A stretch of DNA of 64,000 bases from an uncultured Actinomycetes bacterium. GTDB taxonomy: Bacteria; Actinomycetota; Thermoleophilia; UBA2241. The position numbers and the translations under genes are program-made. The stretch is from contig CAVRZA010000006.1 of NCBI GenBank assembly GCA_963725665.1, positions 64,001 through 128,000 of the forward strand, read 5' to 3'. How positions within the stretch are numbered: the first letter of the stretch is position 1; each line of letters starts with the position of its first letter. Under the pieces are notes generated by a model, which was given only the letters and a program-made list of their open reading frames with translations, ran no database searches and was not told the DNA's origin. Below, piece by piece: positions 10,150 through 28,514 of this stretch.

Positions 10150-10864
10150 CGCACCTCAGTCCCCACACCAAGATGCCTGCCCTTGATGCTCTCGTTGTCG
10201 ATCAGCTCTTCCGGTGTCGACTCATAGACAATAGAACCCTTGCTCATGATGTAGACGTAGTCGGCGACTTCCATCGCCATGCCGAAGTCCTGCTCCACCA
10301 GGAGGATCGAGTGGCCCGCTCGCCTTGAGCTGCTCGATCACCCTGAACACCTCCTGCAACGACTATGGGCGCCAGCCCCTCAGAGGGCTCGTCCAACAAG
10401 ATCAGGTCGGGGTTGGTCATGAGGGCTCGGGCGATCGTCAACATCTGCTGTTCGCCGCCGCTCAGGAGGTTGCCCTTGTTCTTGCTCCGTTCTTTCAGCT
10501 TGGGAAAGAGCGTGAACACCTTCTCCAGCGTCCAGGGGTCCTGTTTGTCGCCGGTCCGGGCGGCCATCGTCAGGTTCTCGGTCACCGACAGCGACGGGAA
10601 GATCATCCTCCCCTGAGGGACGAGGCCGATGCCCAGCCGGGCGATCCTGAAGGGCGGCAGGCCGACGATGTTCTGGCCGTTCGAGGACGATGGCGCCCCG
10701 GCGCGGCGGCGTGAGCCCAATGATGGAACGGATGGTCGTCGTCTTTCCCATGCCGTTCCTGCCCAGGAGAGCGACGCAGGTCGCGTCCTTGACCTGCAGG
10801 GATACGCCCTGGAGCATGTAGCTGTCGCCGTACCAGGTGTGGATGTCATCTGCAGCTCGATCAT
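10150..10864 (-). CDS. Branched-chain amino acid-type ABC transporter ATPase (LivF-like), frameshifted; 3' end approximate
   Basis: LLGRNGMGKTT, LVPQGRMIF, LSGGEQQML, LLDEPSEGLAP, VEQ. Confidence 0.88.
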
Positions 10865-10869
10865 CGCTC

Positions 10870-11636
10870 GCTCACCCGTGGGCCTGCGGTGCTTGTGAGC
10901 GCCCATGTAGATGTCCCTGACCATCTCGTTGGAGCGCGATCTCGTCGCAGGTGCCCTCGGCCGACGATCTCGCCGTAGTGCAGAAGGAGGATGCGCTCGG
11001 CCACGCCGAAGACGAGGTCCATGTCGTGGGCGATCATAAGCACCGTGATCCTGGAGCCCAGCACCGCGGATGCGGGCGGTGATGTCGGCGCTCTCGGTCG
11101 TCGTCAGACCGCAGCTCGGCTCGTCGAGCATCAGCAGCTCAGGCTCGCTGGCGAGACACAGGGCCATCTCGAGCTGGCGCTGCCGCCCGTAGGCCAGCGA
11201 GCTCACGATCTCGTCCCTGAGGTCCCACATGTCCAGCGGACTCCAGCAGCGCTGGGCGGCTCGCCGTGAAGCGCCTTGTCCTTCATGAGATACCGGACGA
11301 TGCCGTAGCGCCTCTTCTGCACGCCCTGCAGAGCGATGAGCACGTTGACGAGGACGGTCTGCTGGGGAACAGGCTGGTGATCTGGAACGAGCCGAGCCAT
11401 GCCCAGGTGCGTGCGCGGTACACCGAGTGACTGGTGATGTCCTGGCCCTTGAAGAAGACCTTGCCGGCCGAGGGCTTGAGCTGGCCGGTGAGCAGGTTGA
11501 AGAGCGTGGTCTTGCCGGCCCCGTTGGGACCGATCATCGCCACTCTCTCGCCCGGCTCGACGCCGAACGTCACGGCCTTGACCGCCGCCAGTCCCCCGAA
11601 GTGCACCGAGAGCCCTTGGACGTCAAGCAGAGCCAC
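10870..11636 (-). CDS. Branched-chain amino acid-type ABC transporter ATPase (LivG-like), frameshifted; 3' end approximate
   Basis: FGGLAAV, IGPNGAGKTT, SFQITSLF, LAYGRQRQLE, LDEPSCG, AHDMDLVF. Confidence 0.88.
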
Positions 11637-11639
11637 GTA

Positions 11640-12725
11640 TCAGCCTCCTCCACCCGTTCACGAGCATCGGATCCGAGTCCTTCCCGCATGAGCATGATCA
11701 CCACCACGAACATCGCGCCCAGGATGAGCGGCCAGCGGTCGGGCAGGTAGAGACTAGCTAGGTACTCGATCCCAACGTAGAGGACGACGCGCCACGATCG
11801 GCCCCGCGAAGAGGGCGGCGCCGCCAAGGATGACGATCATGAAGCCGATCTCGGACGTCTGCATCGGCCAGGCTGTTCGGGGTGCATGACGCCGCCGAAG
11901 TAGGCGAACAGGACACCCGCCACGCCGCCGAACGCGCCGGCGATGACCCAGGACGTGTACTTGTAGAGCCACGTGTTGTAGCCAAGAGCCTGCATGCGTC
12001 GCTCGTTGTCGTGGATGCCCTCAGACCGTAGCCGTAGTGGGAGTTCTGGATCCGGTACATGAGGTAGATGCAGACGACCGCGAAGATGAAGACCAGGTAG
12101 TAGTACCTGGACGGCGTCATCCTCAGCCCCATCCCGAGCTCGGGGTCGGGGATACCGGCCATACCGGTAGACCCCCCGGTGAGCGAGCGCGCCGCGATCG
12201 CCACCCGGGATGCGATCTCTCCAAAGGCCAGCGTCACCAGCAGAAAGTAGATGGGGTTGGTGTTGCCGGCCCCCACACCGAACACCCTGAAAGCCGGGAA
12301 GCCCAAGAGGGCGGCCACGGCCGCAGCGAAGAGCACGGCCAGCACGAGGTTCAGCCAGAAGTTGGAGATGCCGGCGTGGAAGATCAGGATGCCAGCGGCA
12401 TAGCCGCCGGCGCCGAAGAAGACGGCGTGGCCGAAGGTCGGGATATTGGCATAGCCCCAGAGGATGTTCATGCTCATGGCGAAGATGGAGAAGATCATCA
12501 TCTTCGTGACGAGGCTCTGGAGGAACGACGGGATGAACGTCGGCAGCACTGGAGCGCGACGCCCACGATGATGATCGGCAGGACGGCCCGGAGCAGCGAG
12601 CCCCGAGCCCTCTTCACCGGAGCGGCGGCTTGCCCCTCGGCGACCTGAGCGTCGCCCGGGACACTCTCCGTCATGGGCTCGTCCGCAGCCTCGCCCACGA
12701 TGGTGCCTCCCTCTCGCTCGTCCAT
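11640..12725 (-). CDS. LivM-like ABC permease, frameshifted
   Basis: FAMSMNILWGYA..FGHAVFFG, IYFLLVTLAFGE, TGGSTG, VILGG, MREG. Confidence 0.87.
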
Positions 12726-13585
12726 CAGAACACCTTGCGACCGATCAGCCCGCTCGGCCTGACCAACAGGACGATGACGAAGATGACGTAGGACGTGAAC
12801 AGGGCCGCCGATGGGAAGTAGGCCTTGCCGAACGTGTCGAGGACCCCGATGATGAGCGCCCCCAACATGGTGCCCTGGATATATCCGGTGCCGCCGACGA
12901 TCACGACCACCAGGGTCAAGAGCAAAAGGTTGTCGCCCATCGAGGGATAGGCACCCAGGATCGGGGTGCCGAGAAACCCGGCGGCCCCAGCCAGGGCGAT
13001 CCCCAATACGAAGATCAGGGTGCTCACGAGACCGTAGTTGATACCGAGGCTCACGGTCATGTCTTTGTTATCCATCCCCGCCCGGATGATGGCTCCCCAG
13101 CGCGTCTTGTCCTGCATCCACCAGAGGACGCCCAGCACGACCAGACCGACCCCGACGATGAAGACACGGTAGATGGGAAACGCCAGATCGCCGACGTGGA
13201 TGACGCCGGTCAGCCGCGGAGGCGTCAGGCCCATCTGCGCGAACGGACCCCAGATCCAGAGCACGATGTTGGCGACTATGAGAGCGATGCCGATCGTGAG
13301 CACACCTTGCTCGGGAGGGTGGTTGTAGAGATGTCTGAGGAAGAAGTAGTAGAGAGCGAACCCGATCGCGGCGAGCCCGAGAGCTGCGACGACGACGCCA
13401 AACCAGAAGGCGTCAAGCCTGCCGACCACCGCGAGCCCGATGTAGGCACCAAGCATGAACAGGGCGCCGTGGGCAAGGTTGAGGACCCCCATGACGCCGA
13501 AGGTCAGGGAGAAGCCCGCGGCGACCAGGAAGAGGATGAACGCGTACGAAAGCCCGTTCAGTCCCGTGACCAGCACTTGGTTCAT
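12725..13585 (-). CDS. LivH-like ABC permease
   Basis: LNGLSYAFILFLVAAGFSLTFGVMGVLNLAHG, TRWGAIIRA, VVVIVGG, LLVRPSGLIG. Confidence 0.92.
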   Translation of the reverse strand: MNQVLVTGLNGLSYAFILFLVAAGFSLTFGVMGVLNLAHGALFMLGAYIGLAVVGRLDAFWFGVVVAALGLAAIGFALYYFFLRHLYNHPPEQGVLTIGIALIVANIVLWIWGPFAQMGLTPPRLTGVIHVGDLAFPIYRVFIVGVGLVVLGVLWWMQDKTRWGAIIRAGMDNKDMTVSLGINYGLVSTLIFVLGIALAGAAGFLGTPILGAYPSMGDNLLLLTLVVVIVGGTGYIQGTMLGALIIGVLDTFGKAYFPSAALFTSYVIFVIVLLVRPSGLIGRKVF

Positions 13586-13607
13586 ACGTCCCCCTAGCTT
13601 GCTCCAG

Positions 13608-13652: not shown

Positions 13653-13740
13653 TCTGCTGGCCGCGCGCCTCGCTCTGGTCCATATCGCCGAGATACCTGT
13701 CGTCTAGACGCCGAGTCTCCCCCGGTGCCAGCAGGGAGAT

Positions 13741-13754
13741 GATATACCGATATC
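13741..13754. promoter_or_regulatory. Palindromic operator GATAT-N4-ATATC (putative IclR site)
   Basis: Perfect palindrome in the divergent livH/iclR intergenic region; motif recurs five times in intergenic DNA. Confidence 0.7.
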
Positions 13755-13860
13755 GGACTTTGGCAACACTGAATAGCGGACATCGCCATCTTGGCGCACG
13801 AACGCCTCACTCAATGCGCGAGAACCAGGGGAATTACCGGTGGCAGGCCAAGATTCACTT

Positions 13861-13876
13861 TGATACCGACATATCA
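13861..13876. promoter_or_regulatory. Palindromic operator TGATAC-N4-ATATCA
   Basis: Second copy, just upstream of the IclR gene. Confidence 0.7.
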
Positions 13877-13926
13877 CGAATGCTAGAATCGGGCCGCAAT
13901 CGGCGCGCTTTGTGAGCTGATTCTGC

Positions 13927-14793
13927 GTGATGGGGGGTCTCTTGGCAACCAGGCCGTATCTGCGAGGCAAGGCAACGCTGCTCGAGACGACTTCGATCCG
14001 CAACGACGAAGCCCTATTGGTGCGCGCGTTGTCGAAGGGCCTCCTCGTGCTCAGCCTCTACGACGCCGACCATCGCGAGTGGAGTCTCGACCAGATCGTC
14101 GACCAGACGCGCCTTCCGCGGATGACCGCCTACCGCATGGTGAGAACGCTGGAGAGCGCCATGTATGTGGTGCGCGACCCGGCGACCAACCGCTACCACG
14201 TGGGTCCCGCCGTGATCGCGCTGATGTACCTCCGAGACGCGTACTTGGAGCTGGTCAGGATCGCGCGTCCCTACTTGGAGGCTCTCGCCGAGGAGGCGGG
14301 AGAATCCGCTACCCTCGCCGTCGAAGTAGATGGCGTCGCGGTCAGCGTCGACATGGTGAACACGACTCGCCCCTTCAAGCGGGAGCTGACGCCGGGCCGA
14401 ATCATCGGCGACACGGGCAACTGCAGCGGAAAGGTGTTCGCGGCGTTCAAGTCGCCCGCTGAGAGAGCACTGCTCGTCGCCTCGCCTCACGCGCAGTTGA
14501 CTCCGAACACCATCACCGACCCGGACGCGCTTGCCACCGAGCTGAAACAGATCGCGCGCAGCGGCGTCGCCTTCGACATCGAGGAGCGACACATCGGCAC
14601 CTGCGCTGTGGCGGCTCCGATCCGCGATCAGTTGGGAGCGGTCGTGGCCGCGATGGCGCTCGTGGCACCGACTGGGCGCTTCGGGCTCGAAGAACGGACG
14701 CGGTATGCAGAAGCGGTCAAAGCCAAGGCCGACTCCTTGTCGGCCTACCTCGGCTATTCCGCCCAACACCGTAGCTCAGAAGGCGTCGTCTAG
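13927..14793 (+). CDS. IclR-family transcriptional regulator (start uncertain)
   Basis: VRALSKGL..LPRMTAYRMVRTL HTH; GESATLAVEVDG; CAVAAPIRDQLG. Confidence 0.94.
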   Translation: MMGGLLATRPYLRGKATLLETTSIRNDEALLVRALSKGLLVLSLYDADHREWSLDQIVDQTRLPRMTAYRMVRTLESAMYVVRDPATNRYHVGPAVIALMYLRDAYLELVRIARPYLEALAEEAGESATLAVEVDGVAVSVDMVNTTRPFKRELTPGRIIGDTGNCSGKVFAAFKSPAERALLVASPHAQLTPNTITDPDALATELKQIARSGVAFDIEERHIGTCAVAAPIRDQLGAVVAAMALVAPTGRFGLEERTRYAEAVKAKADSLSAYLGYSAQHRSSEGVV

Positions 14794-15948
14794 GATTTCG
14801 GCGACGTCCTGCTTGCCGAAGGCGCGAGCGTTCGACCCGAGGAAGTCGTCGATCTGGCTCCACGAGAGCTCGACGACCTTGGGGATATCCTCGCGCCTGA
14901 GCCCGTAGTCCCGCAGCCGGTGCGCCATTCCTATGTGGTCGAGGAGCTGCTCGACCGCAACGATCGAAAGTCGAGCAGCCTCCAGGTCCGACATGCCGCT
15001 CACCTGCTGACCGAAGATCTCCGCGATGCGCTTGAACGCCTTCGTCTTGGCCGGCAGGTTGAAGCGCATCACTGCGGGAAGTATCGCCGCCATCGAGCGT
15101 CCGTGGGTCAGCTCGCAGACCGCAGCCACTCCGGTGGCGATGCCGTGCACCGCGCCGATGAACGAGCTCATGTAGGCCCAGCCACCCATGCTTGCCGCAA
15201 GGGCTAGGTTGTAGCGAGCCTCCCTGTCCGATCCGTCGGCGACCACCGCGCGCATATACCGGTTGCAGATCTCGAGGATGCTCTCGCTGAACAAGTCGGA
15301 CACGGGGTTCGCCTGCGTGCCCGTGAGGCACTCGATGCCGGTGACGAGGGTGTCGACGCAGGTGTCTGCGGTCGCCTCCGGCGGCATCGACATGGTCAGC
15401 AGAGGGTCGTTGATCACCACGTCGGCCAGCATGAACGGGCTGTTGATGGCGCCATGCTCGTGGGTCTTCTCGTCGATCCGCATGACCGCCGCGGAACCCG
15501 TGTCGGCCCCCGCGACGTGGGTCGTGGAGAGGACGATCAGGGGCAGGCCGGGCCGCGCCACCCTGTTGTGTCCCACCATGCCGCGCAGGTCCGTGCCGTT
15601 CGTCGCCGCCACGGCGACGCACTTGGCGATGTCCATGGCACTGCCCCCTCCGCAGCCGACCACCAGGTCGCAGCTCGAAGACCGAAGGAGCTCGACCGCG
15701 TCGGCAACAAGCTCGATCGGCGCGTCTGGGAGCACGCCGTCGTAGATGGTGAAGGGGATCTGCCCTTCCTCGAGTGACCTCAGCACGGGCGCTACGTCGC
15801 CACGCTCGATCATCGTCTTCTTGGTTACGACAAGGACCTTTGTGCCTCCCAGGGCCTTGACCTCATCGGCCAGTCCCGCAGCGGCTCCGAAGCCGAGGAT
15901 GAACTTGCTGGGCGACAGGAACTCGAAGCCGCCTAGGCTCGAAGGCAT
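14776..15948 (-). CDS. Iron-containing alcohol dehydrogenase
   Basis: GCGGGSAMDIAK, STTHVAG, INDPLLT.SMP, GAVHG, THGRS; RBS AGGAG. Confidence 0.92.
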   Translation of the reverse strand: MPSSLGGFEFLSPSKFILGFGAAAGLADEVKALGGTKVLVVTKKTMIERGDVAPVLRSLEEGQIPFTIYDGVLPDAPIELVADAVELLRSSSCDLVVGCGGGSAMDIAKCVAVAATNGTDLRGMVGHNRVARPGLPLIVLSTTHVAGADTGSAAVMRIDEKTHEHGAINSPFMLADVVINDPLLTMSMPPEATADTCVDTLVTGIECLTGTQANPVSDLFSESILEICNRYMRAVVADGSDREARYNLALAASMGGWAYMSSFIGAVHGIATGVAAVCELTHGRSMAAILPAVMRFNLPAKTKAFKRIAEIFGQQVSGMSDLEAARLSIVAVEQLLDHIGMAHRLRDYGLRREDIPKVVELSWSQIDDFLGSNARAFGKQDVAEILDDAF

Positions 15949-16035
15949 TGGGGCGCTCCTTTCTCTGATCGCGGACGCTCCAGCGGCCGTTGTGACTGAA
16001 CCACCCCTGCTCGCCGGCACTCGCCCGGCGGCCTG

Positions 16036-16155
16036 CTACACGATGGGAGAGACGCGGCCGAGGTAGCCGCGCAGGGTGGTCGATCCCATCTCGCGGTTGT
16101 ACGGCGGGTCACCCGTCGTGAGCACGTTCAGGTTCGAGTCAGCCCAGCCGTGCAC
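16036..16155 (-). pseudogene. Remnant of the C-terminus of a bis-MGD oxidoreductase
   Basis: VHGWADSNLNVLTTGDPPYNREMGSTTLRGYLGRV* aligns with YHGVFISNPNVLT..DPMYGSPDLTCLLCKV of the 6017-8215 enzyme. Confidence 0.65.
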
Positions 16156-16200
16156 GTCGTCATCTCTGTGCAGGAACACAAGATGCGGCCAAACGTGAGC

Positions 16201-16239
16201 GGGGGAGGCTTCACGACTTGTGGTCGTGAAGCCTCCCCC
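16201..16239. terminator. 17-bp perfect stem hairpin after the substrate-binding protein gene
   Basis: GGGGGAGGCTTCACGAC-ttgtg-GTCGTGAAGCCTCCCCC. Confidence 0.75.
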
Positions 16240-16280
16240 CGCGAGAGTCAACTACCTGGTCCGCTCCACCCCTAAAGGCA

Positions 16281-17524
16281 TCACGGGTTCGTGAACGTCA
16301 CGTTCGGATACGTGTAGACGGGCATCCACCGGTAGTTGCCGTCGACCTTCTGCGTCTTGGCGATGTAGAAGTTGCCGGTGCCGACGAACACGCTTTCGTA
16401 CGGAGACATCGTCACCGTGCCGATCGGCGTGTCGATGCTGATGTCCGCCATGGCCTTCTTGAGCGCCTCAGGCGACGTGTCGCCGTTGGTCTTCTTGACC
16501 GCCGCCAGGAACAGATTGACCGCGGTCCACCCGCCGAAGGAGTCCATGTTGGGCAGCTCGCCGTTCCACATCTTGGTGTAGTCGGCGACGAACTTCTTAT
16601 TGAGGGGGTTGTCCAGCTGCGAGAGATAGTGGTCCGAACCGATGATGTTCAACGAGAGATCGCCGAGCTTCTTCATGACCGGCTCCTGGAGGTCGTCGGC
16701 CATGGTCATGACCAGCGGAGCGGTGATGCCGTAGTCGTTGTACTGCTTGATGAACGGACCGGTGCCGTTACCGAAGATCCAGTTGTACGTGCAGTCGGCC
16801 GGCTTCAAGGAGGTCAGGTAGGAACTGAAGTCGACCGTGTCGATGGGCACGTACTTCTCGGTCAGGATCTGACCGCCGCCCTCCTCGAGGGCCTTCCTGA
16901 AGCCGCGCATCAGCTCGTGGCCGGTCGTGTCCTCGTAGTTGATGGAGTTCGCCGTCTTGAATCCGAGCTGCTCGACCACGTACTTGCCGAGCAGGTATCC
17001 CTCCATCGCGAACATCCCGGCCGGGATGAACGACAGGTTGTTCCCCGTCTTCAAGTTGTCGGTCGGCTGGCCGAAGATCGAGATGGAGGGTATGCCACCG
17101 CCCTCTTTGCCCAGATAGCCGGTGACAGCCGCGTTGGCCGGCGAAAAGATCGGACCGAGCATGACTTGTATCTTGTCCTGCTCCACAAGCTGCCGGGCCT
17201 TCTCGACGGCCTGGGTCGGATCGGAGTTGTTGTCGGCCTTGATGTACTCGAGCGGCCTGCCCATCCACTGGTTGTTGACCTCTGCCATAGCGGTCTTGAT
17301 GCCGTGCTCGGTGAGGTTCGCGTCAACGGCCATAAAGCCCGTGAACCCCTCATCGAACCCCATCTTGAGCGGCTCTCCGGTTGCTGCCGGCACCGGCGAC
17401 GCCGACGCCGAGGCAGAAGCGCCACCCCGGAGGTCCCGCTCGAGCCGCACGAGGCCAGAACGAACGCGCTGATCGCCAGCATGAGCACGAGCACCAAGAA
17501 TATTGTCAGTGGCTTCTTGTGCAT
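16281..17524 (-). CDS. ABC substrate-binding lipoprotein (LivK/type 1 PBP family), one frameshift near 17430
   Basis: Lipobox VLASC after hydrophobic signal; GRPLEYIKADNNSDP, GPIFS, DFSSYL, NKKFV, DTPIG. Confidence 0.9.
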
Positions 17525-17907
17525 CTTCAGTCCCCCTTTGCCTGATTTCCTTACGCTATGCTTGCCAGAACCACGCACCGTGGCACCCCCTACCACACGT
17601 GCGAACGCCGGCTAGGTCCCCGTAACAGACAGTCTCCGCATACACCCCCTTGCCCTGAATCCGTCGCCAGATCGGCGGTGTGCCGGCCGACGGACTCCGC
17701 GTGTCGCCTCGTCTTGTCCCCCTTCGCGACGAGCGCGCGCGAGCGCCGCGTTGCCGGCGAGATCCCCGGTCGTCGACGGTGACTGGCAGGCTACTCCACC
17801 TCCAAAGAGCAGACAATACCGGTACTATCGACTTCGCGCCCAGGAGGCCGCGCCCTGGGCTCGCTCATAATCATGGCCGGACATCACGCTCTCGTAGCGC
17901 AGTCGTG

Positions 17908-18723
17908 CTACGCATACGTGGTTTCGTTGAGCAGGGTCGCGAAGGCCCCGATCGGCGTGTTGGCCAGCTCGCCGAAGTCGTCGGACTCATAGCCGAGGAG
18001 TTTGCCGGTGGTCTTCTTCTGGCGCCAGTCCAGAAGCACCACGCCGAGCGTGGGCACGATCTTCTCGCGCCAGACGAACAGATAGAGCTCATCGTCGATC
18101 TTGTAGTAGTGACAGCGATCGGTGTCGGCAAGGCCCTTCTCACTGCCGGCCAGACACTGCCACGTGTACAGCTTCTCGTTCAGGTAGATGTGCTCGTACG
18201 TCTCTGTGCGACTGTAGACGTACTTGACCCTCTTGCCCACCAACTCCGTCGTAGGTGCATGATGGCACTCCTCGGTGTCGAACGGCCTGTCAATGGCCGC
18301 TCTCTGGAACTGGACGCCGACTGCCGTCAGGTCCGCTCCTTCGCTGGCGAGACGGTAGGCGCTCTTCTGGACCTCAGATTCGGCAGGCAGCGTGCCGGTA
18401 ACGGCCGTCGCCCTGCCGGCTGCGAGATCGAGGACCAGGCTGACCGACGTGGCCCGCTGAGCGCGACTGACATAGTCCACGAAGTAGAAGGCGTCCCTGA
18501 AGCAGGTCGCGGAGTAGATCTCTTCGCCCCTGGCGCCTTTGGCGGAGCCCTCCAGGACCTCCCAGCGCAGCTCATGCGCGTCGGCGAACGTGAAACGGGT
18601 GGAGCTGCCGTCTTCGAAGAAGAGCTGCAGGGATTGACCGCTCAAGGCATCTACGGCCGCGAGTACGTTCTCGCTGATCCCCTTCGCCAGCTCCCCGACC
18701 TGTATGAATCGCAGATCATCCAT
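17908..18723 (-). CDS. moaF: MoaF-family protein (monoamine-regulon MoaF of Klebsiella type)
   Basis: ELVGKRVKYVYS..YEHIYLN..YTWQCLAG.EKGLADTD..LYLFVWREKIVPTLG. Confidence 0.85.
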   Translation of the reverse strand: MDDLRFIQVGELAKGISENVLAAVDALSGQSLQLFFEDGSSTRFTFADAHELRWEVLEGSAKGARGEEIYSATCFRDAFYFVDYVSRAQRATSVSLVLDLAAGRATAVTGTLPAESEVQKSAYRLASEGADLTAVGVQFQRAAIDRPFDTEECHHAPTTELVGKRVKYVYSRTETYEHIYLNEKLYTWQCLAGSEKGLADTDRCHYYKIDDELYLFVWREKIVPTLGVVLLDWRQKKTTGKLLGYESDDFGELANTPIGAFATLLNETTYA

Positions 18724-18753
18724 CGGCCGCTCATATCCTCCCAGCCACCGATG

Positions 18754-19948
18754 TCATCCGGCGGCTTCCACGACGGTCGTCATGCCCTGCCCGCCGGCGA
18801 TGCAGATCGTCGCCAGCCCGTACCTCGTGCCTCGTTTGTGCATCTCGTGGAGCAGCGTGGTCAGGATACGGGCGCCGGAGCAGCCGAGGGGGTGACCCAG
18901 CGCGATCGCCCCGCCGTTGACGTTGACGATCTCCCGGTTCAGCCCGAGCTCCTCGATCACCGCCAGGCTCTGCGCCGCGAACGCCTCGTTCAGTTCGATC
19001 AGACCGATATCGTCCAACGTGAGGCCGGCGCGCGCGAGAGCCTTGTGCGTCGCCGGGACGGGCCCGATGCCCATGATCTCGGGCCCGACGGCGGCGACCG
19101 CCTGACCCCGAATGGTCGCCATTGCCCTCACGCCCCGACGCCGCGCTTCCGCCGCCGACATGATCACCAGGCAAGCGGCGCCGTCGTTGCGACCCGACGC
19201 ATTGCCTGCCGTCACGCTGCCACCCTCCTTGAACACCGCGGGCAGCTTGGCGAGCTTCGCCATGCTCGTCTTCCGCGGGTACTCGTCCGTGTCGAAGACG
19301 ACCGCGGGTCCACTGCGCACCGGCACCTCCACGGGGACGATCTCGTCCTTGAACCGGCCTTCCTCGATGGCGCGCCGGGCCCGCTCCTGGCTCTCGAGCG
19401 CAAACTCGTCCTGCTTCTGCCGAGAGATGCCGTACCTGTCGGCGAGGTTCTCCGCCGTCAGTCCCATCGTGAGGTCGCCGTACACCTCGTATGGCTGCGA
19501 TCGCGGCTGGCTCTCGGTGTTCGGATCCACGAGGACGGCGTTGCCTGAGACGAGACCGAAGCGAGCCCCTCTCAGGTAGTAGGGAGCGCGGCTCATGCTC
19601 TCCACGCCGCCGGCCACGACGACGTCGGCTTGGCCGGCTAGAATGGACTGCACGGCGTTGTGGACCGCTTGCAGCCCAGAGCCGCACTGGCGCATGACCG
19701 TGTATGCGGGGACCTCGACCGGCAAGACCGGCTTTGAGAGCCGCCACGCGGGCCAGGTTGGCGGCATCCGCGCTTTGCTTGGTCTGCCCGAAGATGACCT
19801 CGTCGACGTGTGCCGGCTCTATCCCCGCGCGCTCGATCGCCGCGAGGATCACGACCTTGGCGAGCTCCTCCGGCTGCACGTCCTTGAGCGCCCCGCCGAC
19901 CTTGCCCACGGCGGTACGGACCGCAGATGCGACGACGACTTCAGTCAT
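18754..19948 (-). CDS. Acetyl-CoA C-acyltransferase (thiolase), one frameshift
   Basis: [53 protein letters not shown]. Confidence 0.94.
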
Positions 19949-19964
19949 GGCGGATCGCATAGCG

Positions 19965-20737
19965 TCAGGCGTACGCCATGTTCCCGCCGTCGATGTTGAG
20001 GATGGTGCCCGTGACGAAGTCCGACGCCGCCGACGCCAGGAAGACGACGGGCCCCACGATGTCGGCGACGGTGGCCATGCGGCCCATGGGCACGTTCTGC
20101 AGCATCCTCTCGTAGCGAGCCGCCTCGTCCTTGATGCGCTGCTCTGTCATGGGCGTCACGGTGATGATCGGGGCGATGGCGTTGACCAGCACGCCGTGAG
20201 GCGCCAGCTCGCAGGCCAGTTGGCGGGTGATCATGTCGACCGCGCCTTTGGTCGCACAGTAGGCGCTGTTGCCGCCCGACGTGCCTCGCTGGCCTCTGAC
20301 CGACGACAGGCTGATGATCTTGCCGCCGCCCTGCTTGACCATCTGTGCACCGAACGCCTTGCAGCAGATCATCACTCCCCTGACGTTGACGGCGAAGAGC
20401 TTGTCCCACTGGTCCATAGGGAACTCCGTCGCGGGCGCCTTGAAGTTGACTCCCAAGGCATTGACGAGGATATCGACACGCCCCATGTCGGAGACCGCCT
20501 TGGCCACCAGCTCCTCGACGCTCGTTCTCCTGGGTGCAATCGACCTGGTAGACCCCGACCTTCTGGCCCGTGGTCGCCTCGATCTCGGCAGCCGCGGCGC
20601 TCGAGAGTGGCCGGGTTGACGTCGGCGATCGCCACCCGGGCACCGTAGCGCGCGAGCCCGTCCGCTATGGCGTTGCCCATGCCTCCGGCGCCGACGACGA
20701 CGGCGCTCTTGCCCTCGAGCGAAAACAGGTCATCCAT
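19965..20737 (-). CDS. Short-chain dehydrogenase/reductase, frameshifted
   Basis: LFSLEGK..VVGAGGMG, ADVN, NALG, SSVRG, YCATK, VFLASAASDFVTG. Confidence 0.92.
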
Positions 20738-20783
20738 GGCCCATCTCCTTTCCTCCACCACTGCTCTGCGCTCTTCTGCGCGC

Positions 20784-21638
20784 CTATCTCTTCGCGACGC
20801 CCAGTATCTGTCTGGTCTCGTCGGGTGTGGCGGGTTCGATGTTCAGCTCCCTGGCGATGCGCACCGACCGCTCGACGAGCTGGGCGTTGCCCTCTGCCAG
20901 CACGCCCCTCGAGTAGTAGATGTTGTCCTCCAGCCCGACCCGGATCGCCCCGCCCATGACCATGCCCATCGTCGTCAGCGGCAGTTGGGCGGCCCTGGTC
21001 GCCGTCGTGTTGAAGTAGCAGTCGTCGGGCAGGAACTGATGCATCGACATCAGCGTCTCCGGGCTGGCCTCGACGGCGCCTTGATACGCCATCCCCAGCA
21101 CGAGGTTCACGTAGTACGGAGGATCGATCAGCCCCTTGTCTATCAGGTTGCGCACGTCCCGATACATGCTCTGGGAGTAGCACTCCATCTCGGGCTTGAT
21201 GCCGAGATCTTGCATCTTGGCGGCCCACGCCTCGATGTCTCTCGTGAGGTTGGAGAACGGCAAGCCGGCCTGGGGGCCAGTCTGGCGCATGAGCGTGCCC
21301 ATGTTGAGAGACGCCATCTCCGGTTTCGCCTCGAGGCACGCTACTCGCTCCTCGATCGTCAGGTTCGACCCGCCGCCGGTGGAGAACTGGATGATGATCT
21401 CACTGCACGCGCCGCGCACCGCGGCCATGATCTCGGCGAACTTCTCCCTGGTGCCGCAGGGCATTCCATGCTCGTCCCGGGCGTGGATATGGACGATCGC
21501 GGCGCCGGCGTCGTAGCACTCGGCCGCCGCGCGCGCGATCTCGTCCGGCTGCTCGGGGACGTTCGGGTTGTTCTCCTTGCGGACGAAGGCGCCGTTGAGG
21601 GCTGCAGTGATGATGACTTTGCCGGCGGGCAGTCTCAT
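20784..21638 (-). CDS. Beta-keto acid cleavage enzyme (BKACE/DUF849, Kce family)
   Basis: IITAALNGA, AGAAIVHIHAR, STGG, PEMASLNMG, IRVGLEDN, ATPDETR. Confidence 0.93.
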   Translation of the reverse strand: MRLPAGKVIITAALNGAFVRKENNPNVPEQPDEIARAAAECYDAGAAIVHIHARDEHGMPCGTREKFAEIMAAVRGACSEIIIQFSTGGGSNLTIEERVACLEAKPEMASLNMGTLMRQTGPQAGLPFSNLTRDIEAWAAKMQDLGIKPEMECYSQSMYRDVRNLIDKGLIDPPYYVNLVLGMAYQGAVEASPETLMSMHQFLPDDCYFNTTATRAAQLPLTTMGMVMGGAIRVGLEDNIYYSRGVLAEGNAQLVERSVRIARELNIEPATPDETRQILGVAKR

Positions 21639-21772
21639 GAATCCCTTGTCTCCGAGCTAACGCTCTCGCAGATCACATCTCGTGCCTCCGCGAGGACATC
21701 GAAGAGAGCATCATCGCTCTCTCTCGAGATGTCCTCCCCGCTGAGCGGCACGCCAGGAACAGGTGTAGGTGA

Positions 21773-21788
21773 TGATATTCCCATACCA
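21773..21788. promoter_or_regulatory. Palindromic operator TGATAT-N4-ATACCA
   Basis: Upstream of the BKACE-SDR-thiolase-MoaF operon. Confidence 0.7.
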
Positions 21789-21900
21789 CATGCTAGGACA
21801 AGCATACCGTGCCATCACGCACCCGGCGATCCCGGCCCCGGAAGCACGAAGGGACCCGAGCCGTGTCCCTCGCGTCAGGTTCGATGTCCTCAGGAGCTGA

Positions 21901-22748
21901 TTACCGCCCCGTCCCGGCATACCCGAAGAACTCGGAGAGCGACGCGGCGGTCGCCTTCACCGCGTCGGCGCAGGCCTGTCTCTCCTCGAGACCGAAGCGA
22001 CCGGTCGGGACCACGAGCCCCAGCGTGGCGATGACGTTTCCCATCTGGTCGCGGACGGGCGCGACGACGGCACACGTGCCGATGTCGCGCTCTTCGAGGT
22101 CGAACGCCACACCCTCGCTCCTGACCTTCTCCAGCTCGCGCGCGAGCTCGCGCGGGTCCGTGATCGTCCTGGGCGTGCGTCGAGCGCGCGGCTGGTTGAC
22201 AATGGCTTCTCGTTCGGCGTCCGACTTCCAGGCCGCGAACGTCTTGCCGTGGGCGTTCGCAGTGTCGCCGATGACGCGCCCGACCGCCACCTCGCGTTTG
22301 AGGGGCCGCGTCGAGGCGACCATATCGACGCAGACCGCCACTCCGTCGACCTCGACCGCCAGAGTGGCCGACTCACCGCTCGACTCAACCAGCGATTCGA
22401 GATACGGGCGTGCGATCGCCACAAGCTGGGCGTAGCCTTCGGACAGGTAGATCGCCGCCAGCAGAGCGGGGCCTAGATGGTACCTGCCGGTCACCGGATC
22501 GGTGACCAGGTAGCCCGCACCCTGCAGGGTGCGGGCCATGCGGTAGCCGGTCATGCGCGGCAGGCCCAGTCGCGCCACCATCTCGTCGAGGCTCCACTCG
22601 CGATGCTCGGCGTCGAAGAGGCCGAGCATCGCGAGCCCCTTGGCCAACGCCCGGACTACGAACGGGATCATCGCCGTCGGCGCTGCCCGACGCTGCCCCC
22701 AGCCGGCCCGCGTTTGCGCTTGCTCCTGGATCGATCCCCTTTTGCCAT
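21901..22748 (-). CDS. IclR-family regulator (read in-frame with upstream AOR in this sequence)
   Basis: VRALAKGL..LPRMTGYRMARTL, GESATLAVEVDG, CAVVAPVRDQMG; own RBS GAGGAAG and ATG at 22748 is out of frame. Confidence 0.88.
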
Positions 22749-22763
22749 GACTTCCTCGATGTC

Positions 22764-24477
22764 CTAGCTCGGCGAACACGCTGTCGAGGTCTGCCTCGCT
22801 CACGTCGAAACGATTCCCGGTGGGCGGCAACGCCTCGTTCACCATGAAGGCCGGCAGCCTGTCGTCGGCCGCGGTGAAGCCGGCGCGACGGTTGAAGTCG
22901 CGCTCCTGCTTCACGATCTGGCTGCCCAGAACGATGAGGTAGTCCTCAGGCAGCGCTTTACCGGTGAGGGCCGCCACGGCGGAGACCAGTTGGCCCTGGA
23001 GCTCCGGCATGTCGAGCGGGGGCAGGCACGCGAACAGGCACATGCCCAAGGCATCGATCGCGGCGAAGTAGGCCTGCAGGAACTGCGACATCTGCGCCTG
23101 CCCCTCCGACGAGCTTGGGTCGTAGGCCGGGTTGGCGGGGCTGGGCAGAGCGTTGCCCGCTGTGTGGTCCCCACCCTGAGGGCTGGTCGCGTAGGTGACC
23201 CCGGTGCCCTTGAGCACCCTCGGTTCCCAGGCGGCGATCCCCTGGCCCTTGACGGCGGGTATGCGGGCGACTCCGAGCGCCGTGCCGGTGGCGACGCAGC
23301 CGTTGGCGATCAGCCTGGCGTTCTCGTCGCCGGAGGTCAGCTTGCCGAGCAGCTCGTGCACGGCAGCACCGTCGCCCCAGGGGAGCAGACCGCCCTCCAT
23401 GGCGACCCCGACCGCCGCCCCAATCTCGATGGTGTCGAGCCCGAGGTCGTCGCAGAGACGGTCGATGCGCGCCAGTTGATCGAGGTCGGTGATGGCGCAG
23501 TTCGAGCCCAGGAGCCCCAGGCTCTCGAACTCGAAGCCCGAGGTGACCTCGTTGCCGTCTTCGTCGGTGAAGACTTGGGAGCAGTTGATCACGCAGCCCG
23601 CCATGCAGCGGTGCTTGGCCTCGCTGTTCGGGCGTTCGGCCATCAGCTCCACCAGGCGCGCACCGTTGATCTTGTCTGCGCCCTCGAACTCACCGGCCGA
23701 GAAGTTCCTGGTGACCAGGCAGCCCATGGGGTTGGCGACATCCACGAGGAAGGCTGAGCCCAGCGCCTCCAAGGCCCCCACCGCCGGGTGCGAGCGGATG
23801 CCCTTCGAGAAGCTAGAGGCCGCGGCCTTCATGGCGGCCGGGTCGGCGGGCTTCACAGCACGACCGCCGGCATCGTCGATGACGATGGCCTTGAGGTTCT
23901 TGGCGCCCATGACGGCGCCCAGGCCGCCCCGGGCCGCGGCACGCAGCCGGAAGTCGGGACTCGTCACCGTGACCGACGCCGCCTTGAGCTGCAGCTCGCC
24001 CGCGGGCCCGGCACAGATGATCGACACACCTTCGCCGTAGCGCTCGCGAAGTCTCTGCACGGTGTCACGATTCCCGAGCCCCTTGAGCTCGCCGGCCGCC
24101 ACCAGCGCACCTCCGTCCGCCGCCACCTCAAGGAGGCTGAGCGAGTCGGCCCGACCCGTCACCTTGATGCCGCGCAGGTCGAGTTGGGCCATCTTGCGGG
24201 CGGCCGACCCACCTGCGTTGGCCTCTTTGATGCCGCCCGTCAGCGGGCTCTTCGCCCCGACCGAGAGCCGGCCGCTGTTGGGGATCGACGTACCGGCCAG
24301 GATGCCCGCGGCGTACACCAGGACGTTGTCGGGACCGAGCGGATCCGCCTTGGGGTCGACCTCCTGGGCCACGATGGCAGACGTAAGGCCGTGACCGCCG
24401 AGCTTCTCCAGCTCTTCGGACAGCGCCTCCCTGGTCACCGTGCCGTGGGTCAAGTCAACGTTGAGAAGGTCGGCCAT
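22764..24477 (-). CDS. Aldehyde:ferredoxin oxidoreductase (tungstopterin AOR family)
   Basis: AKSPLTGGIKEANAGG, GPAGE, AARGGLGAVMGAKNLKA, CMAGCVINC, EFES, CDDLGLDTI, DALGMC, ERDFNRRAG, DRLP. Confidence 0.92.
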
Positions 24478-24586
24478 GGTCCATCACATCCTTCACGGAG
24501 CAGTTGGCGGCTCTTCAGTGCGTAACTTGGGCGCTGGCCTCGATGCCTGGACGCCGCAGCAATCCCGTTCGGCGCGCTGCACGCTA

Positions 24587-24601
24587 TGGTATCAGGATAT
24601 C
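24587..24601. promoter_or_regulatory. Palindromic operator TGGTAT-N4-ATATC
   Basis: Upstream of the AOR-IclR genes. Confidence 0.7.
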
Positions 24602-24621
24602 GATTCGTGCCAACAAGGTCC

Positions 24622-25413
24622 CTACCGGCCCGTATAGGTCGGCTTCCGCTTCTCGAGGAACGCCCTGGCGCCTTCCTTCTGGTCGTCGGTGCCGAAGCAG
24701 AGGGCGAACAGGTCGCGCTCGTAGCTCATGCCGACGGAGAGCGGCGTCTCGATGCGACTTGTTGACGGCGATCTTGGCCAGCCTGAGCATCACCGGGCTG
24801 TTCCTCAGAAGATCGCCGACCAACTGCTCGGTCGCCTCCCTGCAGCTCGGCCAGCGGAACGACTCTGGTTGACGATGCCTAGGCCGAGCGCTTCGTCCGC
24901 GGACATCATGCGCCCGGTGAAGATGAGCTCCTTGGCCCTCTTCTCGCCCATCAGACGCGGCAGCATCTGCGTCCCTCCGCACCCCGGGATGACGCCCACC
25001 CGGATCTCGGGCTGACCGAACTTGGCGCTGTCTCGCGGCGATCGATCGAGTCGCACGCCAGGACCAGCTCGCACCCGCCGCCGAGAGCCAGGCCGTTCAC
25101 CGCGGCGATGACCGGCTTGGGCATCTCGCGGATCGTCTCGTACGGACGCCTTCTCGCCTTGGCGGTTATGACGTCGACGGGGTACCTCGACGGGAACTGG
25201 CTGATGTCGGCGCCGGCGCTGAAGGCCTTCTCGCCGGCGCCGGTGATCACCACCACGTACACGTCGTCGTCGAGCGCTGGCCTGTTCCAGCGCCTGCGAC
25301 GAGCTCGGCGCGCAGCTCGTCGCTCTGCGCGTTGAGCACTTCGGGCCGGTTCAGCGTGATCCACGCCGCGTGTCGGCCTTCTCGTAGATGATCGACGCGT
25401 ATTCACCGGGCAT
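24622..25413 (-). CDS. Enoyl-CoA hydratase/crotonase, frameshifted
   Basis: TLNRPE.LNA, ITGAGEKAFSAGADI, PVIAAVNGLALGGGCE, FGQPEIRVG, AFLEKRKP. Confidence 0.9.
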
Positions 25414-25422
25414 GGGTCTCTC

Positions 25423-26624
25423 CTAGCTGTCTTCAGCTCTGATGATCGCGCGCGTTGTTGCCCGCCATGCCGTAGACCTCGGACATGCCCACCTTGGCGC
25501 CCTCGACCTGCCTCGCCCCGCACTGGCCCCTCAGCTGCAGGACCATCTCGTAGACCTGGGCGAACCCCTGGGCCATGGTGGCTTCGCCGAAGCTCGAGAA
25601 GCCCGCCGCTGGGGCAGACCGGGAGCCTGCCGCCGATCATCGTCTCGCCGCGCTCGAGCGCGAGGTGCGCGGTGCCCTCCTCGAAGAGGCCCATGGTCTC
25701 GAGGTACTGGAAGTAGTGCCACGAGCTGTTGTCGGGGACTTCGACGAAGTCGACGTCTTCCGGGCCCATGCCCGGCCTGCTCGTAGGCCGCCTTCGCCGC
25801 CACCCAGCTCTCGCTGATGATCGGCACGCCCTCCTTGGGCTGGAAGCCCAGCACCGGGATGCGGGTCGTCGGGTCGCCGTACAGCGGACTGCCCAGAGCC
25901 GCGAGCGCCGATCGTGATCGGCTTGCCGGTGTACTGCTTCGCCTTCTTGGCGCTGCACAGGATCACCGCGCCGGCCCCGTCGCTGGTGGCGCAGATCTCG
26001 TAGGAGTCGCAGCGGGTCGGTGACCATCGGCGACGCGAGGACCTCCTCGAGGGTGAACTCCTTGCGGTAGCGGGCCATCGGGTTCAGCGCGCCGTGCTTG
26101 CTGGTCGCGACCTTCACCATGGGCCAGGTGCTCGTCGGTGATGCCGTGCCTGGCCATCTTCTTGCGGCATTCGAGCGCCCAGAAGATGGGATTCGGCAGG
26201 CCCATCTGCCAGCGCATGGTGTCGTCGGACGGCACCGGCTCCTCGTGGTACGGCGGCAGGAAGGGGAAGAAGCCCTTCGCGGACTTGTCGGCGCTCACGG
26301 CGAGCACGACGTCCGCGTAGCCGGAGGCGACCATCGCCGCCGCGACGGTGATGCACGTGCCGCCGGTGGCGCAGGCGTTGTTGACGTTGATCGTGGGCAC
26401 GCCGGTGTAGCCCATCACCTCGTCGAAGTAGTTGCCCGAGTAGATGCCCTTGCGACCTCCCCAGTTCTGCGAGCCGGAGACGACCGCCTGGACGTCCTTC
26501 CAGCGGATCGCCGGCGTCGGCCAGGGCCTCGTTGGCGGCGTCCGCACGCCATGTGGGTCCAGAACTTCTCGGGGAACTTGCCCCACGGATGCAGCCCGAC
26601 GCCGATGATCGCGATCTCTTCCAC
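25423..26624 (-). CDS. SCP2-type thiolase / lipid-transfer-protein family, frameshifted
   Basis: IIGVGLHPWGKF, NVNNACATGG, HGALNP.ARYRK, DGAGAVIL, CPSGG..SFGEATMAQG, RQVEGA. Confidence 0.87.
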
Positions 26625-26663
26625 TGTCCGTCTCCCTTACGAAAGCCGAGCCGCGGGAGGCGC

Positions 26664-27095
26664 TCAGACGCTCTTGAACTTCCAGCCGACGAGCTCCTCG
26701 CCCTTCTTCGTTCGTGTAGAGCACGGGACGACGGTCTTGACTTCCATGCCGATGGAGACGTCGGCGGGAGCGCAGTCCTCCATCATGCCGATGATGTGGA
26801 TGCCTTCGGGCAGTTCCGACCGCGACCACGGGGATCGGCTCGGTAGTCCTTCGACGCCACGTAGGGCGGCGGCGGCGGATAGCTCATGGCTGAGTAGTGT
26901 CGAGACCGTGCCGGTCGGGACTGAGGGGGACGTCTTCGACGTCCCTGGCCTCGCACTCCGGGTTGTGGCAGGTGAAGGTCCTGCGGGAAGAAGTAGTCGC
27001 CGCACGACTTGCAGTGCGTGCCGATGAGATGGCCGTCACCCAGCTCCGGAGATGAACAACCCCTCCCCCAGCAGCACTCGCTTGATCTCCGTCAT
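26664..27095 (-). CDS. Zn-ribbon/OB-fold (DUF35, ChsH2-like) partner protein, frameshifted
   Basis: HLIGTHCKSCG.YFFP...CHNPEC; ELPEGIHIIG..VSIGMEV..VGWKFK. Confidence 0.85.
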
Positions 27096-27135
27096 GTGTG
27101 ACTCCCTCCGTATCGCAGCTGCAGTGGCGAGCTTC

Positions 27136-28356
27136 TCAGTCGACGACGCGACTCCTCTCGGAGCCGGGGATCTCGTCGGGGCCGTAGCCGAGCTCCGACG
27201 AGGATCTCCTCGGTCTGCTCGCCCAGTCGAGGCGTCGGCGACTTGATCGACGACAGGCGCCTCGCAGAACTTGGTCGGTGCGTTGATCGACCTGATGCGG
27301 CCGAGATCGGGCTGATCGACCTCGACGAAGAAGTCGTTGATCGAGGGCCTGCGGGTCGTCGATCACGTCGAGCGGGCGAGAGGATCGGCCCGTACATGAG
27401 GTTCTCGCCGCGTCAGTCGCGTCTCCCACTCGGCGTACGTGCGCGGCAGGAGAAGACCTCGTTCAGCAGCGGCGACAGCACGTCGCGATGCTCCTGTCGC
27501 ATGTCCGTCGTCGCGAAGCGCGGGATCCTCCGCCAGGTCCGGCCTCTCCATGGCGCGGCAGAACGCGGTCCAGAACGCGCTGCCGGAGGGATCGGCGGCC
27601 TTGGCATAACGATCGGCCGCCGTGAGCTGCAGCCAGCGCCCGTCTTTGCACTGGTAGACGTCGTAGAAGGGGTTGTCGGACTTGGACGGGTCCACTCGCC
27701 TCAGAGGCAGGCCGAAGAGCGCGTCCATGACGTCGGCGCCCACCATCCACACGCCGGTGTGGTACAGGTTGAACTCGACCTTCTGGCCCTCGCCCGTCCG
27801 CTCCCGGTGGTAGAGCGCCGCCGCGATGCCGCCGAAGATCTGCATCGACGAGACGCTGTCGATGATGCCGGGGCGGGAGGCCGGTGGAGGAGTGCCCGGG
27901 GCGCTCAGCATGTCCTGGATCCCCGAGCGCGCCCAGCCGGCGGCGAAGTCGTAGCCGGCCATGTCCTTGTCGGGTCCGATGGTCCCGTACGCCGACACGA
28001 TCCCGTAGATGATCCTCGGGTTGATCTCGCGGAGGGTCTCGTAGTCCAGCCCAGCCGCTCGAGAGAGCCGGCCTGGTAGTTGGTCAGGAACACGTCGTGA
28101 CTCGCGCACGAGCTTGTACACGATGTCCTTGCCGGCCTCCTGCTTCAGGTTGACGGCGATGCTCTTCTTGCTGCGATTGTGCAGGTAGAACCCGGGATTG
28201 ACGTCGGTCCCGCGGAACGTGCGTGACTGGTCGCCGGTGAGCGGCTCGACCTTGATGACCTGCGGCGCCGCAGTCCCCCATCATCGAGGAGGCCGCCGGG
28301 ACCGCCACCACGTGCCCCATCTCGATGATCCTCACGCCCTCTAGTATGTCTGCCAT
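27136..28356 (-). CDS. Family III CoA-transferase (CaiB/BaiF), frameshifted
   Basis: LEGVRIIEMGHVVAVP, IKVEP, NRSKKSI.VNLK, INPRIIY..SAYG, GYD, IID, ALYHRERTGEGQ, PRLGEQTEEIL. Confidence 0.9.
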
Positions 28357-28498
28357 GCGTCCCTCCGTAGTGTGGCAGCAGGATCCCTGCGATCGAACGT
28401 GATCACGTCCCGCGTGACGCGCGGCCGCTGAGTCGTTACGGCGCGCAGCCTCCCCACGCCGACGTGGTCTCCCGCACGCGGACGCGTCTGCTCGATAA

Positions 28499-28514
28499 TG
28501 GTATGTGCATATCA
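28499..28514. promoter_or_regulatory. Palindromic operator TGGTAT-N4-ATATCA
   Basis: Upstream of the CoA-transferase/DUF35/thiolase/crotonase operon. Confidence 0.7.

Follow-up and report, generated by a model that had tools for sequence, protein, structure and literature searches.

A conserved promoter palindrome as the probable operator of an uncharacterised IclR clade in uncultured Actinomycetota

This study deals with a short palindrome, TGRTAT-N4-ATAYCA, that recurs at the promoters of a catabolic gene island in an uncultured Actinomycetes bacterium (assembly GCA_963725665.1; here G000). The island lies in a stretch of 64,000 nucleotides of contig CAVRZA010000006.1 (positions 64,001 to 128,000), referred to throughout as the window. 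An initial annotation had proposed that the palindrome is one operator, read by three paralogous regulators of the IclR family. Based on the collective evidence described here, and judged from sequence, the palindrome is understood as a genuine, evolutionarily conserved cis-element tied to this IclR clade. It is probably the operator of a previously uncharacterised IclR clade of Thermoleophilia/Gaiellales-like Actinomycetota, with the regulators acting as repressors. Most likely, the IclR-type family docks on the palindrome to control genes of plant-phenol breakdown in these uncultured soil actinobacteria.

Results

Five transcription units headed by one palindrome

Between 8.7 and 28.4 kb the window holds five transcription units, each with one copy of the element at its 5' end. 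The gene map was drawn from Pfam scans and from comparison with the paralogous contig C7 of the same genome (C-numbers designate contigs of G000, the window being on C6). The genes and the palindromes are as follows; scores and genome ranks are those of a weight matrix introduced below.

3..605, plus strand: iclR-C, truncated by the window start (whole gene G000:C6:63838-64626), recognition helix LLRMTAYRMVRTL
8748..13600 (end approximate), minus strand: liv-type ABC transporter (permeases and ATPases, several frameshifted) and class-III aminotransferase, behind copy 1
13740..13755: operator copy 1, tGATATACCGATATCg, in the divergent liv/iclR-A gap; matrix score 22.1, genome rank 5
13861..13876: operator copy 2, tGATACCGACATATCa, in the iclR-A promoter; matrix score 17.9, genome rank 6
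13927..14793, plus strand: iclR-A (HTH_IclR and IclR_C domains), recognition helix LPRMTAYRMVRTL
14776..21638, minus strand: operon of BKACE, SDR, thiolase (frameshifted), MoaF, periplasmic binding protein and Fe-ADH, behind copy 3
21773..21788: operator copy 3, tGATATTCCCATACCa, between the iclR-B stop (114 nt away) and the BKACE start at 21638 (136 nt away); matrix score 26.0, genome rank 2
21901..22725, minus strand: iclR-B, second gene of the AOR-iclR operon, recognition helix LPRMTGYRMARTL
22768..24477, minus strand: aldehyde:ferredoxin oxidoreductase (AOR family), first gene of the AOR-iclR-B operon
24587..24602: operator copy 4, tGGTATCAGGATATCg, 111 nt before the AOR start (24477); matrix score 23.5, genome rank 3
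~24600..28356, minus strand: operon of CoA-transferase III, a thiolase-like gene and enoyl-CoA hydratase (partly frameshifted), behind copy 5
28499..28514: operator copy 5, tGGTATGTGCATATCa, 144 nt before the CoA-transferase start (28356) and past the end of a TatD-like gene (about 28670); matrix score 27.8, genome rank 1

The strict pattern GRTAY-N4-ATAYC (GRTAYNNNNATAYC) is found at exactly five positions of the window, namely 13741 (GATATACCGATATC), 13862 (GATACCGACATATC), 21774 (GATATTCCCATACC), 24588 (GGTATCAGGATATC) and 28500 (GGTATGTGCATATC). The base 5' of this 14-mer is T in all five copies, and A follows it directly at 13862, 21774 and 28500. Coordinates, letters and flanking bases are as the initial annotation had given them, and the gene map agrees with its placing of each copy at the head of the liv-aminotransferase, iclR, BKACE, AOR or CoA-transferase unit. 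Where the start codon is clear, the site precedes it by 52-144 nt. The nine strand-matches at these five positions compare with a mean of 0.07 and a maximum of 1 in 100 dinucleotide-preserving shuffles of the window. The pattern was composed with the window sites already in view, so that the shuffle figure alone is weak and independent tests were sought.

Distribution in the genome

In the 3.73-Mb genome the strict pattern occupies nine positions: the five of the window, C7:5554, C1:533696, C4:219402 and C4:538135. Six of the nine stand at promoters of operons beside or including an IclR paralog, the sixth of them, C7:5554, preceding a paralogous AOR-iclR operon. A weight matrix trained only on the related loci described in the next section (71 distinct 22-mers) and then run over the whole of G000 placed precisely the five window sites and C7:5554 in its top six. 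The two C4 positions have low matrix scores and lie inside crude open reading frames (ORFs), while C1:533696 scores under the listing threshold. In the matrix, T at -1 and A at +15 each reach 74% although neither is required by the search pattern; both positions being informative, the element extends to 16 bp, TGRTAT-N4-ATAYCA. The seventh match, C1:194403 (locus L080; TGATATAGGCATTTCA), is intergenic, upstream of a gene resembling pyridoxal-phosphate (PLP) decarboxylases and of an FGGY kinase, with a GntR/FCD regulator gene adjoining, and is a possible outlying member of the regulon.

Positions 2744-5610 of C7 duplicate window positions 21795-24644 (~2.9 kb, AOR and iclR) at 87% identity. Between C7:5554 and 24588 a 19-nt block with the palindrome is identical, whereas the neighbouring DNA has diverged and carries a 15-nt insertion right beside the block. 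The C7 contig (L001, G000:C7:1-12000) presents a second island of nitroreductase, PLP decarboxylase, TatD-like gene, site, AOR, iclR-D, SDR and another IclR. Its proteins are 89-96% identical to those of the window; BKACE and the CoA-transferase/hydratase operon are missing from it. With the genome rated 5% contaminated, this island may be either a genuine paralog or a variant from a co-binned strain.

Other origins of the pattern were considered and set aside. A dispersed repeat or duplicated promoter was rejected, as only 24588 and C7:5554 are homologous and the other sites share nothing past about 16-20 bp. Chance, or a pattern fitted after the event, was ruled out by the shuffles, the genome count, the reversed and spacer controls given below and the matrix from other genomes. 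A restriction-modification target as the cause of the element's rarity was set aside by reasoning only, since it cannot explain promoter placement or conservation across genera.

Conservation in related loci and in relatives

One genome per species was scanned with an alignment of the four IclR paralogs of G000, which gave 77 related loci (915,853 bases). Except for one labelled Deltaproteobacteria, they originate from uncultured metagenome-assembled genomes of the Actinomycetota/Thermoleophilia/Gaiellales type. The strict pattern is present in 81 copies, distributed over 55 of the 77 loci, where it stands at orthologous positions. In the same DNA the reversed pattern occurs 5 times and the spacers N3, N5 and N6 occur 1, 1 and 0 times; the spacer is strictly 4 bp. 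Offsets of the sites from iclR are stereotyped, and Pfam annotation of six loci explains them:

about -2800: head of a 3HCDH-BKACE-SDR-iclR operon (3HCDH, 3-hydroxyacyl-CoA-dehydrogenase-like)
about -1900: head of an AOR-iclR operon, like copy 4
-33 to -203: the regulator's own promoter, like copy 2
about +900: head of a 3HCDH-BKACE-SDR-thiolase-cyclase-cyclase operon right after iclR, like copy 3

Copy 3 is positionally homologous to 19 of the '+900' sites, and in 20 aligned '+900' gaps the palindrome and its flanks (aaagTGATAT..ATAcCATTg) are the best-conserved block amid divergent DNA. The initial annotation had held that an operator should not be equally frequent inside genes, and it is not: 56 of the 81 copies are fully outside crude ORFs, which leave only 9.5% of the DNA outside, having covered 90.5%. 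A further 4 copies are partly outside and 21 inside, 16 of the latter within 140 nt of an over-extended ORF start. These coding and non-coding figures are approximate, as the crude ORFs (GC3-based, first start codon) have over-extended 5' ends and miss frameshifted genes.

Free of selection through the IclR gene are only the genome-wide matrix ranking and a set of 20 relatives chosen by kinship alone, of which one is positive. The relatives were scanned with a 15-base pattern (the 14-mer plus the trailing A). The IclR clade is found in G015 only (4 matches, E <= 1e-40), and this genome also has the most pattern matches (6), among them GGTATACTGATACCA and a copy 128 nt upstream of the iclR gene. 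Of the other 19 genomes, G017 has 5 matches and the remainder 0-2 each. As a separate observation, a near-identical 15-mer, GGTAC[AG]GGAATATCA, occurs once per genome in G009, G012, G014, G016, G017 and G018, all without the IclR clade, and presumably belongs to some conserved gene or RNA. Of the genomes searched, the 12 from the same family all lack the clade, and G015 is the one same-class genome that has it. The island is therefore patchily distributed, which suggests that it was gained and lost as a unit.

Four paralogs in three clades

G000 encodes four close IclR paralogs by tblastn, termed A, B, C and D (the last on C7), with identities of 63% (B vs A), 59% (C vs A) and 96% (D vs B). 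Their recognition helices are LPRMTAYRM (A), LPRMTGYRM (B and D) and LLRMTAYRM (C), those of A and B reading as the initial annotation had them. HTH_IclR (PF09339) and IclR_C (PF01614) exceed the gathering thresholds in A, B and D, and C aligns throughout; both domains are also present in the IclRs of the related loci scanned with Pfam (L005, L010, L013, L020, L032, L073, L042, L053 and L056). The nearest solved structures are distant (best PDB E-value 2e-21; chains matched from 1mkm, 2xrn/2xro, 5y6i and 1tf1). Against the NCBIfam equivalogs, A, B and C remain below every cut-off. Their best models are TIGR02431 (121-127 bits; cut-off 284.75) and NF045644 (115-126 bits; cut-off 350). These scores are far under the cut-offs, so that A, B and C are not members of either group.

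A midpoint-rooted FastTree phylogeny of 75 locus IclRs and the four G000 copies (L068 and L077 were omitted from tree and clade counts, their translated stretches being <200 aa) resolves three deep clades. The A-like clade has the helix LPRMTAYRMIRTM, G000-A and L013 forming a sister pair; the B-like clade, which includes D, has LPRMT[GAS]YRMARTL and adjoins AOR; the C-like clade has L[LVIQ]RMT[AV]YRM[VA]RTL. The three clades are old. At least 17 contigs hold two loci of different clades, about 10-35 kb apart, and paired paralogs are therefore the norm. The original count of three paralogous IclRs thus stands for the clades but has to accommodate the fourth copy, D.

Operator sequences were compared between clades as counts of distinct 16-mers, in which kin are not independent. 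The half-sites are:

A loci: TGGTAT 22, CGGTAT 12, TGATAT 8
B loci: TGATAT 35, TGGTAT 19
C loci: CGATAT 6, TGATAT 3; CAATAT, GGGTAC and AGATAT 2 each

A search upstream of iclR-C found no strict site, only a one-mismatch variant, CAATATTGTGATATCG (CAATAT-TGTG-ATATCG in G000), about 200 nt upstream at about C6:63625, outside the window. Most of the 22 related loci that lack a strict site belong to the C-like clade. Among the 23 C-like loci examined, the regulator's own promoter carries a copy with no more than one mismatch in 18, usually GATATCTCGATATT; the variant of this clade has the general form GATAT-N4-ATATT. A clade-C variant, GATAT-CTCG-ATATT, is located between divergent operons of Mo (molybdenum) enzymes resembling pyrogallol transhydroxylase. 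The three clades appear to have a common operator architecture with favoured sequences that are only partly alike. What holds of the proposal of one operator for all paralogs is accordingly the shared architecture; the strict site fails for IclR-C, and the half-site preference shifts by clade, from mostly GGTAT in A to mostly GATAT in B and cGATAT/cAATAT in C. The further suggestion that effector pockets differ between the paralogs found no specific support. Of 19 discriminating columns (conserved inside each clade, different between clades), 8 fall within residues 1-75 and 11 within the 191 residues that follow, giving no enrichment in the ligand domain, in which the pocket was not mapped.

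Promoter geometry

A scan for the sigma-70 consensus in 13000-29000 returned five promoter-like sites, compared with a shuffle mean of 1.8, and four of them coincide with palindromes:

liv promoter, minus strand: TTGCCA-16-TATCAT; copy 1 overlaps the -10 hexamer TATCAT (13744-13739)
iclR-A promoter, 13860-13889: TTGATA-18-TAGAAT, with TG before the -10; copy 2 lies over the -35 box and spacer
BKACE promoter, 21801-21772, minus strand: TTGTCC-18-TATCAT; copy 3 overlaps the -10
AOR promoter, 24613-24586, minus strand: TTGGCA-16-TACCAT; copy 4 overlaps the -10 hexamer TACCAT

At the liv, BKACE and AOR promoters the ATAYCAT half-site is itself the predicted -10 hexamer. A further short string, ATGCTA(G/C)(A/G)A, is seen on the plus strand at 13885, 21792 and 28535, that is 4, 2 and 16 nt after sites 2, 3 and 5. 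At site 2 it forms the extended -10 of iclR-A; its direction at sites 3 and 5 would be antisense to the genes nearby.

Enzyme families behind the candidate operator

In the relatives, the families encoded behind the operator are SDR, cyclase, 3HCDH-like, BKACE and thiolase, and L032 and L073 have SDR, cyclase, 3HCDH-like and BKACE all in one operon behind it. Mo enzymes of the pyrogallol-phloroglucinol transhydroxylase type, with their iron-sulfur (FeS) partners, flank the IclRs in L073, L056, L053, L042 and L002. They show an AhtL-like first domain (PF21423) together with Molybdopterin domains, and the FeS subunit has a CarboxypepD_reg-like domain. In the window itself, a TatD-like hydrolase, a PLP decarboxylase, a nitroreductase and an FeS plus Mo enzyme follow beyond site 5. 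The Mo enzyme (32.6-35.2 kb), of putative function, is 86% identical to that of L073.

A second cluster, BKACE-cyclase-3HCDH-like-SDR-IclR-SDR, is present 12 kb before the window at C6:49-54 kb (L081, G000:C6:46001-58000, about 3034-8648), with an ADP-forming acyl-CoA ligase behind it. The IclR encoded there shares only 32% identity with iclR-A, and the cluster yielded no match to TGRTAT-N4-ATAYCA. It may represent the genome's canonical phloroglucinol core, controlled by another regulator.

Frame disruptions in the island

Several genes of the island are split by frame changes of one base (ABC transporter, aminotransferase, thiolase, CoA-transferase, TatD-like gene and Mo enzyme), the TatD-like gene being spread over three frames and the thiolase and the Mo enzyme over two each. 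The regions affected are:

8748-13600
18754-19948
24600-29569
32617-35209

The split genes look like long-read or assembly indel error, which would fit them better than gene decay. Likewise, iclR-B and AOR read as a single ORF of 858 aa (window 21901-24477, minus strand; junction about 22700-22780). In the C7 paralog, AOR ends at a TAG stop and the iclR ATG follows 15 nt later. Compared with C7, the window junction has an extra C that deletes the stop and three more single-base indels within about 120 nt. The apparent AOR-IclR fusion is thus most likely an assembly indel artefact, and the true start of iclR-B is likely the ATG near 22725 that the C7 copy uses, as placed by eye. In its 5' portion, the livH-like ORF contains a perfect tandem duplication of 23 bp (13608-13652; 2.0 copies, 100% match), which throws the reading frame out and leaves the true start of the gene uncertain.

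Discussion

The evidence obtained in this study is consistent with repression by a family of local regulators acting on a shared operator type. Most likely, a dimer, or a dimer of dimers, of an A-, B-, C- or D-type IclR would sit on the palindrome. The palindrome coincides with the -10 or -35 at four of five promoters, so that a bound protein would block RNA polymerase; the block would last until a pathway intermediate releases the IclR. The promoter geometry favours such repression by occlusion. With one site on the iclR-A promoter, and with iclR-B and iclR-D in AOR-iclR operons behind a site, the regulators would also control themselves, hence autoregulate. The genes under control would be those for BKACE, SDR, thiolase, AOR, CoA-transferase and the liv-type transporter/aminotransferase, joined in the relatives by 3HCDH-like, cyclase-family and pyrogallol-transhydroxylase-like Mo enzymes.

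Several observations weigh against this interpretation. The link between palindrome and IclR is one by association. The related loci were gathered through the IclR gene, and co-location there is partly built in; many of them are also kin, so that the counts overstate independent events. G017 has its five pattern matches in a genome without the IclR clade, although all five start with GGTAC or GATAC, unlike the GRTAT half-sites usual here, and seem to be of another kind. At copy 5 the sigma-70 scan called no full promoter, though TACCAT follows on the minus strand. Relatives of the '+900' class have a better promoter (TTGAAT-17-TACGGT) upstream of the palindrome, which there may be a roadblock instead of a -10 overlap. 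Moreover, some IclR-family regulators of aromatic catabolism, such as PcaR, bind over -10/-35 and activate.

Alternatively, the same proteins on the same site could be effector-dependent activators, or dual regulators, that remodel the promoter core. We regard this as rather unlikely, yet it is the strongest competitor. The closest NCBIfam models, albeit with scores far under the cut-offs, are BhcR and the PcaR/PcaU/PobR subfamily, and the site position varies between the -35 at iclR-A, the -10 at three others and a place downstream of the promoter in the '+900' relatives. A half-site that supplies the predicted -10 hexamer at three promoters is classic occlusion geometry, however, and autoregulatory sites on a regulator's own promoter are typical of repressors. 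Between activator and repressor, the evidence does not discriminate firmly. A far less probable scenario has another, unlinked transcription factor on the palindrome, with the IclRs recognising something else. Selection of the loci through the IclR gene would leave room for it, as would the other regulators near some loci (TetR in L005, GntR beside C1:194403); but no other regulator family recurs among the annotated loci. In each of the three clades, sites are present at the promoters or operons of the iclR genes themselves, and the variant of the operator follows the clade of the IclR. Among the 20 kin-chosen relatives, clustered sites are seen in the very genome that has the IclR clade. That the motif is a mere promoter element (a special or extended -10), a short dispersed repeat or a chance pattern can practically be dismissed. 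Its ATAYCAT half does resemble a -10 box and the pattern was defined post hoc. Nevertheless, the dyad symmetry is perfect, the 4-bp spacer is strictly fixed, and the box that the element overlaps is the -35 in one promoter but the -10 in others. Flanks past 16-20 bp are unrelated, the shuffle and reversed-pattern controls are near zero, and precisely these sites are picked out by a matrix built from other genomes.

The operator-repressor arrangement favoured here is close to what is known of the family. E. coli IclR, AllR and KdgR and Pseudomonas TtgV have palindromic operators that overlap promoters. Like these classical regulators, the proteins described here have two domains (HTH_IclR and IclR_C), the inverted repeat that is their candidate operator measures about 15-16 bp and lies at the promoter core or across it, and they would act on themselves from genes that adjoin the catabolic targets. 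The family feature of an approximately 15-bp palindrome at own and adjacent catabolic promoters is thus seen here, by association, at 5 promoters and in 55 of the 77 loci. Different from the classical systems, three old paralog clades keep one operator architecture in one gene island, and the family members with a structure or a name are only distant relatives of these proteins. The best-scoring named models, PcaR/PcaU/PobR (TIGR02431) and BhcR (NF045644), represent regulators of aromatic or small-acid catabolism, mostly activators. Searches of the open-access PMC and bioRxiv literature found neither TGRTAT-N4-ATAYCA nor the clade or its regulon; they returned no evidently relevant work on IclR together with BKACE, and none on IclR, 'aldehyde ferredoxin oxidoreductase' and operator.

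Regarding the pathway, we somewhat favour anaerobic breakdown of trihydroxybenzenes (phloroglucinol or pyrogallol type) as the function of the island. The anaerobic phloroglucinol cluster of Clostridium scatologenes, in the part of its description considered here, comprises PGR, DPGC, TfD and TAL and also an unnamed transcriptional regulator (PMC10470551). The passages concerned do not name the family of that regulator, and 'IclR' occurs 0 times in the main text of the paper. The same four enzyme families (SDR, cyclase, 3HCDH-like and BKACE), plus thiolase, appear behind the operator in the relatives, with transhydroxylase-like Mo enzymes beside them. The operons for AOR, CoA-transferase, liv transporter and aminotransferase are a further component of the present island, as far as the passages on the C. 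scatologenes cluster go. Certain points speak against the assignment. It is based on family composition only; the BKACE operon of the window is without the 3HCDH and cyclase genes of the relatives; and BKACE, 3HCDH, SDR, Mo enzyme and AOR are all under the NCBIfam equivalog cut-offs. For BKACE, the triacetate/3,5-dioxohexanoate-cleaving model NF053538 gives 210-217 bits (cut-off 430), and the best model, lysine-pathway KCE, at 289-301 bits is also below its cut-off of 382.

Lastly, for an IclR clade not previously characterised, from lineages that are represented by metagenomes only, our study yields a candidate operator sequence and a reconstruction of the regulon, which comprises five operons here and has a core conserved across dozens of related genomes. 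As a marker, the motif can lead to the whole island of anaerobic trihydroxybenzene/polyphenol catabolism, and it flags AOR, the CoA-transferase operon and the liv-type transporter/aminotransferase as co-regulated accessory parts. By analogy to the classical local regulators of the IclR family, whose mode of working it appears to share, the system would be a solid but fairly ordinary gene switch. The principle, in which an IclR regulator acts locally through a palindrome in the promoter, is textbook knowledge; the architecture shared by three clades is the feature of wider interest. Three old paralogs with near-identical recognition helices and one operator type constitute a convenient natural system in which to study whether duplicated regulators evade or make use of cross-talk. 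Tentatively, and with distinctly less confidence than in the operator itself, the three clades might be viewed as a conserved multi-paralog circuit on one operator architecture, each paralog sensing a different phenolic or ring-cleavage intermediate and all jointly gating successive stages of the pathway. Such a circuit would operate through partly diverged half-site preferences (GGTAT, GATAT and cGATAT/cAATAT), possibly with mixed tetramers, and the stages gated would be transhydroxylation, ring reduction and cleavage, and the processing of aldehydes or CoA-esters. If true, it would represent a hard-wired sequential-induction switch in abundant uncultured soil Actinomycetota, with a bearing on the turnover of plant phenolics in anoxic soils.

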